Positions 53,475 to 63,972 of a DNA stretch of 64,000 bases are shown in pieces. Source of the DNA: an uncultured Rivularia sp. Its GTDB lineage: Bacteria; Cyanobacteriota; Cyanobacteriia; Cyanobacteriales; Nostocaceae. The notes beneath the pieces are model-generated. The model ran no database searches, was not told the origin of the DNA, and saw only the letters and a list, made by a program, of their open reading frames with translations. The stretch lies in contig OY762007.1 in NCBI GenBank assembly GCA_963665115.1, forward strand, positions 3,488,001 to 3,552,000, read 5' to 3'. Position numbers and translations under genes: made by a program. Position 1 is the first letter of the stretch. The number at the start of each line of letters is the position of its first letter.

Positions 53475-55667
53475 ATGGAATCTAGAGAATCAGTAGATTT
53501 AGATTTACAAAAATTTTGGTACATAATTAAGCGACGTTGGCTACCAGCTACATTTATATTTACTGTTTCAATTGCAATAGCAACAGTACTAGGTTCTTTG
53601 AAACAGGCAGTTTTTCAAGCTGAAGGTAAGCTTTTAATTAAAAAAGTCAACCAGACTTCTGCTTTGACGGGTTTGGGAGAGCCGATTGGACAGTTAGAAG
53701 GTTTAGATATAAAAAGTAGCCCTATAAATACAGAGATAGAAGTAATTAGTTCCAAACCTATTTTGATTAAAACAATCAAAAACTTAAATCTCAAAGATGA
53801 TGATGGTGTACCGCTACAACCAAAGAAACTTGCAGAACAGATTAATCTGACAGCAATTCCGGCAACTGATGTTTTACAGGTTTCTTATGAAGCTAAAAAT
53901 CCTCAAGAAGCAGGAGCGGTTGTTAATGAGTTGATGAAACTGTATATGGAAAACAATATACAGACAAACAGAGCCGCTGCTGTTGCTGCTGGTGATTTTA
54001 TCGCCAGACAGATACCCGAAACAGAAGCTAATGTCCGTCAAATAGAAGAAGCTTTACGTCGCTTTCAGCAGCAGAATAATGTGATTTCGTTGGGAGAAGA
54101 ATCTAGAACCGCTGTAGAAATCCAGAAAAATTTAGAGACTAAAATAACTGAAACAGAAGTAGCTTTAGCAGAGGTAAATGCTCGCGTACAAAGTCTTAAG
54201 AACAAGGTTGGGATGAATTTTCAGGATGCTATCAATACAGATTCTCTCAAAAGTTCCATTGGGGTACAACAGGTTTTAGATAATTTGCAAAGAGTAGAAC
54301 AAGAGTTAGCATTAGCTCAAACTCGATTTTATCAAACACATCCGACAGTTCAGAGTTTAACAAGCCAAAGAAATGCTCTACAAAGATTATTAAATACGAG
54401 AGTTGCAGAAGTTAGTCAGAATAATCCTAATATAACGACTGCAAATTTACAGATTGGTGAAATAACGCAAAAGTTAACAGAAGACTTGACAAAATCGGAA
54501 GTAGAAAGTGTAGCTCTTAAAAATCGGCTAGATTCTTTATCAGCGGCATTAGCAATTCATCAAAAAAGAATTAATCTTTTACCCCAGTTAGAGCAAGAAG
54601 AAAAAAAATATCAGCGACAATTAGAAACTGCTCGAACAACTAATGAAAATCTTGTAAAAAAGCTCCAAGAAGTAAGAGTTACAGAAAACCAGAATATTGG
54701 TAATGCTCGCATAATTGAACCTGCTTTTGTAACCAAAAAGTCTACCAAATCAACCAAAATTATGTTTGTGATTTTGGGAGGTGCTTTAGGAACTTTAATT
54801 GCAACTGCGATGGTTGTCTTGCTTGAATTAAAAGATAGGTCTGTTAAAACTCTTAAGGAAATCAGAAAGCTATTTGGATATACCTTACTTAGTACTATAC
54901 CTTCCTTGAAAAAGAAATCTTATCTTAATCTCAAAGATACAGACAATAATACTTTACCCGAAATACCTGTAAGAGATAATCCCGATTTACCAATTGCAGA
55001 TGCATATCGGATGCTTCAAGCTAACCTGAAGTTTATTAGTTCTGACAAACCACTACAGGTAATTGTAGTCACAAGTTCAGTTCCTAAAGAAGGTAAGTCA
55101 ACCGTCTCGGCAAATTTAGCAGCTGCGATCGCGCAATTAGGACAAAGAGTATTGCTTGTAGATGCAGATATGCAAAATCCAATACAGCACCATTTATGGG
55201 GTGTAAATAATGTCAAAGGGTTGAGCGATATCATTGTCGGCCAAGTTGAATTTGAAACGGTTGTAAGTGGAGGAATGCTTAGTTTAGATATTTTGCCAGC
55301 AGGAGCAACGACTCCCAATCCTTTGTTCCTTTTAGATTCACGAAAAATGGAAACTTTGATTGATGATTTTAAAAATACCTATGATTTTGTGATTATTGAT
55401 GCACCATCATTAGTGATGAGAGCGGATGCTTTGGCTTTAGGCAAAATGGCTGATGGTGTTTTATTAGTAGCACGTCCGGGAGTACTTACTTCTGGTGATT
55501 CTGCTACAGCTAGAGAAGCTTTAGAACGTTCCGCGCAAAATGTATTGGGTATGGTGGTAAATGGTGTAATTCCAGAAAATGAATCCGATAGCTATTTCTA
55601 TTACGCTAAGAACAACTCTGATAAAGATAGTTCGCATCAAGAAGCTATCAAATCAAAAACATTTTAA
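53475..55667 (+). CDS. wzc: Wzc/GumC polysaccharide co-polymerase and tyrosine autokinase
   Basis: Wzz-like N-terminus, coiled coil, TSSVPKEGKST, VDADM, IIDAP and C-terminal YFYY. Confidence 0.93.
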   Translation: MESRESVDLDLQKFWYIIKRRWLPATFIFTVSIAIATVLGSLKQAVFQAEGKLLIKKVNQTSALTGLGEPIGQLEGLDIKSSPINTEIEVISSKPILIKTIKNLNLKDDDGVPLQPKKLAEQINLTAIPATDVLQVSYEAKNPQEAGAVVNELMKLYMENNIQTNRAAAVAAGDFIARQIPETEANVRQIEEALRRFQQQNNVISLGEESRTAVEIQKNLETKITETEVALAEVNARVQSLKNKVGMNFQDAINTDSLKSSIGVQQVLDNLQRVEQELALAQTRFYQTHPTVQSLTSQRNALQRLLNTRVAEVSQNNPNITTANLQIGEITQKLTEDLTKSEVESVALKNRLDSLSAALAIHQKRINLLPQLEQEEKKYQRQLETARTTNENLVKKLQEVRVTENQNIGNARIIEPAFVTKKSTKSTKIMFVILGGALGTLIATAMVVLLELKDRSVKTLKEIRKLFGYTLLSTIPSLKKKSYLNLKDTDNNTLPEIPVRDNPDLPIADAYRMLQANLKFISSDKPLQVIVVTSSVPKEGKSTVSANLAAAIAQLGQRVLLVDADMQNPIQHHLWGVNNVKGLSDIIVGQVEFETVVSGGMLSLDILPAGATTPNPLFLLDSRKMETLIDDFKNTYDFVIIDAPSLVMRADALALGKMADGVLLVARPGVLTSGDSATAREALERSAQNVLGMVVNGVIPENESDSYFYYAKNNSDKDSSHQEAIKSKTF

Positions 55668-55707
55668 AGAATTAGTTATATCTATCTTTACCGGGTGCAT
55701 TTTATCT

Positions 55708-63700: not shown

Positions 63701-63972
63701 GGATAGAATACAAACTTAGCGAATCATTTCAACCTTTAATGCCAACCCTTGATAAATTCATGAATGAATACGAGATTAAACCTTTACTGGGTAAAATAAA
63801 TATTTTCGTAGCCGTATATGAGTTTTATGGACTTGAAGATGCTAATTTTGGTTGGGATAAATGGGCTACTGAAGTAGAAATATATAAAATTCCCGGTACT
63901 CATCGCTCTATGTTATTAAAGCCAGAGAATGCCAAACTGTTAGCTCAGCAACTTAGTGCTTGTTTGAAATAA
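60715..63972 (+). CDS. Stand-alone NRPS-like enzyme: partial C domain, A, PCP and TE domains
   Basis: [59 protein letters not shown] and TE-like GHSYEG...PGTH. Confidence 0.92.
   Translation: [1085 protein letters not shown]

Follow-up and report, generated by a model that had tools for sequence, protein, structure and literature searches.

In the 64,000-nucleotide stretch of the genome of an uncultured Rivularia sp. analysed here (contig OY762007.1; the whole stretch is called the window below), a single-module non-ribosomal peptide synthetase (NRPS) gene (60715..63972, + strand) is embedded in the middle of a Wzx/Wzy polysaccharide locus and not at its end. The arrangement is real, conserved and widespread. 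Based on the domains of the protein and on its surroundings we consider it probable that the NRPS is a tailoring enzyme, which aminoacylates the polysaccharide repeat unit via its thioesterase (TE) domain before export. A sequence-only reading of the window had proposed aminoacylation of exopolysaccharide (EPS) or sheath; this is the best supported explanation and is inferred from the genes.

The NRPS gene follows five genes on the same strand, and Pfam agrees with the identities and positions assigned to all six in the sequence-only reading. These are wzc, encoding a polysaccharide co-polymerase/tyrosine autokinase of 730 amino acids (53475..55667, +; Pfam Wzz, GNVR and AAA_31, TIGR01007 above its cut-off), the flippase gene wzx (55708..57147, +; 479 amino acids; Pfam Polysacc_synt), the genes for a GT2 glycosyltransferase of 320 amino acids (57190..58152, +; Pfam Glycos_transf_2) and a GT4 glycosyltransferase of 368 amino acids (58216..59322, +; Pfam), and a wzy-like polymerase gene (59328..60611, +; 427 amino acids from the ATG; Wzy_C, PF04932). 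The open frame of wzx begins at 55579, and the start used here is the one shared with the orthologues, which have 479 amino acids and match from residue 44. PF04932 includes O-antigen ligases as well, and the polymerase is read as Wzy from the cluster context. The spacing of about 100 nt between wzy and the NRPS gene, without an obvious terminator, is confirmed: 103 nt separate the wzy stop at 60611 from the NRPS start at 60715, a terminator scan of this gap was negative, and two promoter-like 9/12 matches in it are at chance level (25 found in the region versus 33.7 expected). Co-transcription of the two genes is presumed.

The cluster continues past the window edge, as had been suspected, and the NRPS is not the attached end gene that the sequence-only reading took it for. 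On the NRPS strand follow a GT4 gene (64505-65608), a WecB/TagA/CpsF gene (65837-66598), a GH10 gene ending at 67788 and a gene for a WcaJ-like polyprenyl-phosphate sugar transferase (68182-69627; TIGR03025, 377.5 bits with a cut-off of 295.55); coordinates above 64,000 continue the window numbering into the adjoining genome sequence. The next gene is radC on the opposite strand. Polysaccharide genes are thus present on both sides, the inspection of the downstream genes revealed no further module, and this gene order rules out that the NRPS opens a biosynthetic cluster lying downstream. A tblastn search with NRPS and polyketide synthase (PKS) queries found no second NRPS or PKS in the window, consistent with the earlier claim. 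The Wzx/Wzy pathway is represented by an initiating sugar transferase, Wzx, Wzy, Wzc and glycosyltransferases, while wza is located outside the cluster, for which the genome has two candidates, both Poly_export genes at other places. The window cluster contains no MFS or ABC exporter and no further tailoring gene, and neither a peptide exporter nor a second NRPS module is found in or beside it. That glycosyltransferases and the initiating transferase flank the NRPS on both sides, with no peptide exporter or other module, argues for a tailoring role.

This is further supported by conservation among 26 other genomes of the genus. A wzy orthologue (at least 81% identity) is present in 19 of them, and none of the 19 lacks the NRPS: it immediately follows wzy in 16, and in three it immediately precedes the downstream GT4 gene on a separate contig. 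With these queries neither wzy nor the NRPS was found in six of the 26 genomes, five of them at least 98% complete and one 84%, while in G018 (83% complete) the locus has collapsed and contains remnants of wzy, NRPS and wcaJ. A TE query matches 18/26 genomes, one match being a remnant. In nine comparisons the ratio of non-synonymous to synonymous substitution rates (dN/dS) is 0.08-0.37 over all NRPS domains, and dS of the NRPS resembles that of wzy and wzx except for a swapped, Val-like adenylation (A) domain (dS 1.37). The NRPS is under purifying selection. Tandem NRPS copies occur in seven genomes (G003, G005, G007, G014, G017, G021 and G365). In G004, G005b and G021b the pocket is Val-like (DA[LF]WLGGTFK), and the A domain is only 52-54% identical compared to 70-79% for the peptidyl carrier (PCP) and TE domains; judged from the alignment, these three carry a swapped A domain. 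The window gene itself has a mixed ancestry. Its 5' part is 85-93% identical to copy a and 77-78% to copy b of G007/G003, whereas its TE is 92-97% identical to copy b and 76% to copy a, identities that mark it as a hybrid of two tandem copies of its relatives. The joint presence or absence of NRPS and wzy in the genus, together with purifying selection and the A-domain swap, favours the tailoring role.

The NRPS comprises 1085 amino acids (Pfam AMP-binding, PP-binding and Thioesterase). The three domains A-PCP-TE were recognized correctly in the sequence-only reading, but an N-terminal half condensation (C) domain was overlooked. It spans residues 2-243 (60718..61443, +), corresponds to the C-terminal half of a C domain (positions 191-456 of 456 in the Pfam Condensation profile), has the same start in orthologues and comes without the portion that holds the HHxxxDG motif; it is likely structural. 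The A domain (61501..62976, +) has the equivalents of Asp235 and Lys517 (D454 and K754) and the pocket code DIEDIGTVVK, read from the alignment. The only match of the pocket region in the PDB at E<=1e-15 is ApnA A1, with the aligned code DVESIGVIAK and Arg/Tyr as substrate; the substrates assigned to pocket codes in this analysis are predictions. An additional Asp in the pocket is compatible with a basic substrate, predicted to be Lys or Arg. A literature search with the pocket-code strings found no match. The PCP domain (63064..63252, +; Pfam PP-binding) contains the sequence GGNS(811)L, with a Ser that is invariant in orthologues. In the TE domain (63283..63969, +), assigned by Pfam, alignment and a structure model, the triad Ser928/Asp955/His1063 is conserved. 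The elbow has the atypical sequence GHSYEG in 18/18 aligned rows of the clade (one of them GYSYEG). The model shows a normal TE fold (predicted local distance difference test, pLDDT, 88) with the Ser at the strand-helix elbow, and its fold matches, with Pks13 on top followed by NocB and other TEs, have template-modelling (TM) scores of 0.6-0.7 and do not discriminate between them.

Compared to a canonical peptide-forming NRPS, the protein has no HHxxxDG C domain and one module only, so that it is expected to make no peptide alone and to need an outside acceptor. Of the features of a single-module NRPS-like enzyme, D454, K754, S811, S928/D955/H1063 and a phosphopantetheinyl transferase (PPTase) gene, which is located elsewhere in the genome, are present; the TE elbow departs from the canonical GxSxG. 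In the proposed mechanism this PPTase would prime the carrier, and the A domain would activate the amino acid, predicted to be Lys or Arg, and load it. Ser928 of the TE would then accept the aminoacyl group and hand it to a sugar hydroxyl or amine. As acceptor we favour the repeat unit, lipid-linked and still facing the cytoplasm, with a nucleotide sugar as the less probable choice. Wzx would subsequently flip the unit, Wzy would polymerise it, and Wzc together with a Wza encoded elsewhere would export the polymer. The product would be an anionic sheath or slime bearing cationic side groups, and an A-domain swap or a second copy would alter the side group.

Outside the genus we compared 88 wzy loci of 87 genomes, drawn from 150 listed of 349 wzy matches. 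An NRPS is present in the fetched region at 48/88 loci, in 11/25 genera, with 30 of the 48 in genus g66, while only 2.4% of the 20-kb windows of the source genome touch an NRPS A domain by chance, and all 12 other wzc-like loci of that genome are at least 248 kb away from one. The synteny check that the sequence-only reading had suggested thus shows a linkage that is conserved within the genus and recurs across families. The form of the linkage varies. In G081 the NRPS is at the same position as in the window cluster, and in 10 genomes of three genera a GT2–halfC–A–PCP–TE fusion with mostly Gly-like pockets is located inside the cluster. Two- and three-module NRPS genes lie upstream of a second wzx in G153 and G098. 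In G078, G129, G328 and G348 an A–PCP–TE gene is co-oriented upstream of wzx and has a pocket without the amino-binding Asp. In the A–PCP–TE proteins at L131:14116-16836, L155:8592-11339, L161:9117-11807 and L164:10198-12972, Ser replaces this Asp (SFSFSSS motif), and the substrate is therefore likely not an alpha-amino acid; these enzymes possibly provide a small acid for EPS acylation. The g66 loci (L176:2260-8187 and 29 others) have a divergent NRPS in 30/30 cases, mostly with two modules, the first pocket being DPW[AG][TIV]GCIDK and the second Ser-like, and would be a good model for genetics.

A TE tree, calculated with a narrow non-EPS set and without 12 GT2-fusion proteins and the three other TE regions of the source genome, requires at least four origins. 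NRPS genes were recruited to these clusters several times, and a single dedicated EPS-type TE clade is rejected by the same tree. The half-C domains fall in separate clades, indicating independent truncation (the G398 row in the tree is a full C domain), and do not support the window NRPS as a GT2 fusion that has lost its GT2. The occurrence of the NRPS at 48/88 outside loci against a chance rate of 2.4%, the repeated origins and the in-cluster GT2 fusions all argue for the tailoring role. In other genomes the same variable zone contains methyltransferases, Acyl_transf_3, a hexapeptide acetyltransferase or a phosphodiesterase-family gene. The latter is present at 0/48 loci with and 11/40 loci without an NRPS, and one methyltransferase at 19/48 versus 1/40, related genomes not being independent in either comparison. 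Two fusions were seen at such loci, GT4–hexapeptide acetyltransferase (L084:8152-9900) and, read by eye, GT4–WecB-like C-terminal part (L072:15235-17148).

GT2–NRPS fusions extend beyond the family. Among the matches listed, homologues of the GT2–halfC region have both GT2 and A domains in 86/120 cases and come from sources including Rhizonema, Microcoleus, Oscillatoria, Lyngbya and Chamaesiphon. Their pockets are Gly-, Thr-, Gln-, Ser-, Val-, Orn- and Asn-like. An order-wide draw found GT2–NRPS genes in 17/401 genomes, and a phylum draw with the fusion query, in which only 5 candidates per genome were scored, in 4/401. Six of the 13 order-draw loci outside genus g85 were examined; they belong to two other families, and 6/6 adjoin a wcaJ-like gene, with wzc and either wzx or wzy also visible at two of them. 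Together with the methyl-, acyl- and acetyltransferases found in the variable zone elsewhere, this supports the tailoring role. In two of the six a TE-less line leads to a PKS with an aminotransferase domain and then to an Acyl_transf_3 membrane acyltransferase. At these loci (L228:66-9972 and L232:296-9431), beside wcaJ, the GT2–NRPS is Thr-like, and the line is a candidate route for an unusual aminoacyl group on a glycan. In g85, 3/4 GT2–NRPS–TE loci (L117:10599-16258, L119:4505-10548 and L121:10422-15676) adjoin a GDSL/SGNH gene. A GT2-junction query against metagenomes yielded 13 loci, and the five inspected are ordinary GT2 genes. The GT2 of the window cluster matches the NRPS-fused GT2 of other genomes with only 40% identity over 99 amino acids and is thus not its orthologue, while the GT4 encoded at 58216..59322 is 54-72% identical in other genera and common in clusters of the same type.

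As a more general reading, which we put forward tentatively, filamentous cyanobacteria may plug NRPS modules into one widespread Wzy polysaccharide and thereby write a lineage-specific code of amino acids or short peptides on their sheath. Its forms would be single modules, tandem pairs with a swapped A domain, GT2–NRPS fusions, di-/tripeptide lines and NRPS-PKS lines.

Several observations weigh against a tailoring role. Split or stop-bearing NRPS orthologues occur in G001, G003, G005b, G007b, G081 and G201, some of them in assemblies whose neighbouring genes are also broken. Such broken copies, together with the several independent origins, the tandem duplications and the hybrid gene, would be expected if the cluster were a hotspot for insertions that carries NRPS genes as passengers, functionally unrelated to the glycan. 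We regard this as improbable given the purifying selection, a dS like that of wzy and wzx, the joint presence and absence in the genus, the GT2 fusions and the fact that the repeated recruits are NRPS in 11/25 genera against the 2.4% expected by chance. The TE elbow carries a Glu at the position of the usual Gly, a change that could alter or abolish activity. The TEs are polyphyletic, and no dedicated sugar-transferring TE family was found among them; the fold match with Pks13 (TM 0.65-0.69, 18-20% identity) is no better than with other TEs and provides no evidence of shared function. The 88 loci are the top wzy matches and not a random sample, and G081 and G201 were first found via the TE. 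At 40/88 of the related loci there is no NRPS, which indicates that it is dispensable for polymer assembly. At 30/48 NRPS-positive loci, those of g66, the gene lies on the other strand and diverges from wcaJ or wzx, and in g85 4/4 GT2–NRPS loci lie outside polysaccharide clusters.

The last two observations would also fit the second option of the sequence-only reading, a glycosylated amino-acid metabolite: the NRPS and one glycosyltransferase would together produce a small molecule (a glycosylated amino acid or short peptide, or a glycolipid) that is co-regulated with the polysaccharide and not joined to it. The g66 genes are not in an operon with the polysaccharide genes, and the two- and three-module and NRPS-PKS lines of relatives could yield a defined small product. 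We consider this explanation unlikely, though to be kept in mind. For such a metabolite the window cluster has neither an exporter of the MFS or ABC type nor another tailoring gene. The sugar genes are retained where the predicted substrates change (basic, Val-, Gly-, Gln-, Thr-like and non-amino-acid), and a side group that varies explains this more readily than a single metabolite.

Some further features of the region were noted. Upstream of wzc a 119-amino-acid open reading frame (52216-52575) without a Pfam match is 92-97% conserved at this place in relatives. The GH10 gene contains a one-base frame break near its start (L001:6781, 66781 in the extended numbering, ~780 + 2000 bases beyond the right window edge). 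The extra base is missing from the contigs of 3/4 runs and most relatives encode ~391 amino acids, so that the break is probably an assembly error or a local allele. Within the 532 nt between the NRPS and the downstream GT4 gene, the stretch L001:4189-4268 is partially matched by other contigs of the same runs and is probably a dispersed repeat. Rfam gave no match within L001 1-11000. The region is spanned unbroken by contigs of two runs, one possibly the source run.

The locus can be compared with known systems for modifying surface polymers. The DltABCD system catalyses D-alanylation of teichoic acids, and the comparison with it made in the sequence-only reading holds as logic: in both cases an adenylation domain and a carrier supply an amino acid, and an anionic surface polymer would gain positive charge. 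It does not extend to the machinery. The NRPS scores below the DltA cut-offs (333 of 476; 318.5 of 559.85), is a modular protein with the carrier, half-C and TE in one chain, has no adjacent DltB/MBOAT or DltD-like gene, and belongs to a Wzx/Wzy-made polymer, with a swappable pocket that predicts a basic residue. A Dlt-like route, in which the loaded carrier would serve a membrane acyltransferase encoded elsewhere for extracytoplasmic modification and the TE would only edit or shuttle, could draw on two MBOAT genes in the genome, and in relatives a line is paired with Acyl_transf_3 or stands beside GDSL/SGNH (3/4 g85 loci). Both MBOAT genes, however, are ~4 Mb distant, MBOAT, Acyl_transf_3 and SGNH are absent from the window cluster, and selection acts on the TE, whose triad is conserved, which makes this route very improbable.

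In Vibrio cholerae, AlmEFG glycylates lipid A, and RfbK/RfbL are involved in carrier-based acylation of the O1 antigen. Both resemble the tailoring proposed here in that a carrier-bound acyl or aminoacyl group is transferred, within the cytoplasm of a Gram-negative bacterium, to a glycoconjugate of the cell surface. They consist of separate proteins with a dedicated transferase, whereas here an NRPS-type TE would act as the transferase, on a Wzy exopolysaccharide. MysE (Ava_3855) is the A-PCP-TE enzyme of shinorine synthesis, encoded in the mysABC cluster, with a Ser-type pocket. Like MysE, the window NRPS is a cyanobacterial single-module NRPS-like enzyme that would join an amino acid to an outside acceptor, but its neighbours are polysaccharide genes and not mysABC, its code DIEDIGTVVK is not Ser-like and it has a half-C domain. 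By scores, domain content and neighbours, the system is neither a Dlt system nor MysE.

For the release of cargo onto a sugar by a TE there is a precedent in Pks13 (PMC12933137). As proposed here, an assembly-line TE transfers the cargo to a sugar before export; in contrast to our NRPS, Pks13 is a PKS that makes mycolates, with trehalose as the acceptor. The cluster itself corresponds to the cyanobacterial Wzx/Wzy EPS clusters described in parts of PMC4594306, with wzc, wzx, wzy, glycosyltransferases and a polyprenyl-phosphate sugar transferase, and with wza elsewhere; the main text of that paper does not mention an NRPS or peptide synthetase. The nearest description found is a PKS-saccharide-NRPS cluster in Gloeocapsopsis, for which no function is given in the relevant passage of PMC6513891. 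The C. difficile flagellin glycan locus, considered as a precedent for an NRPS, was the wrong parallel, as the genes described in the pertinent section of PMC5207246 are FemAB-like and ATP-dependent ligase genes and no NRPS. A literature search, with most subscription papers and supplements outside its scope, found no description of an NRPS-in-polysaccharide-cluster system, and these genes may already be included in cluster tables of supplements or in subscription papers on orphan NRPS clusters of Nostoc.

Peptidic moieties have been described on cyanobacterial EPS (passages in PMC4594306 and PMC9148076), and we found no named pathway for them. The locus is a testable candidate and predicts, for each strain, which amino acid is placed on the polymer. 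If a lineage-specific code of this kind is true, it would provide a genetic source of the unexplained peptidic moieties, NRPS TEs would act as polysaccharide aminoacyl transferases, and many orphan NRPS genes would be reassigned from small-molecule to envelope synthesis. The A-domain swaps seen in nature hint at a means of tuning EPS for use as a material. For the cells, such groups would change the charge and hydrophobicity of the polymer and plausibly its metal and calcium binding, adhesion, desiccation tolerance and phage attachment.

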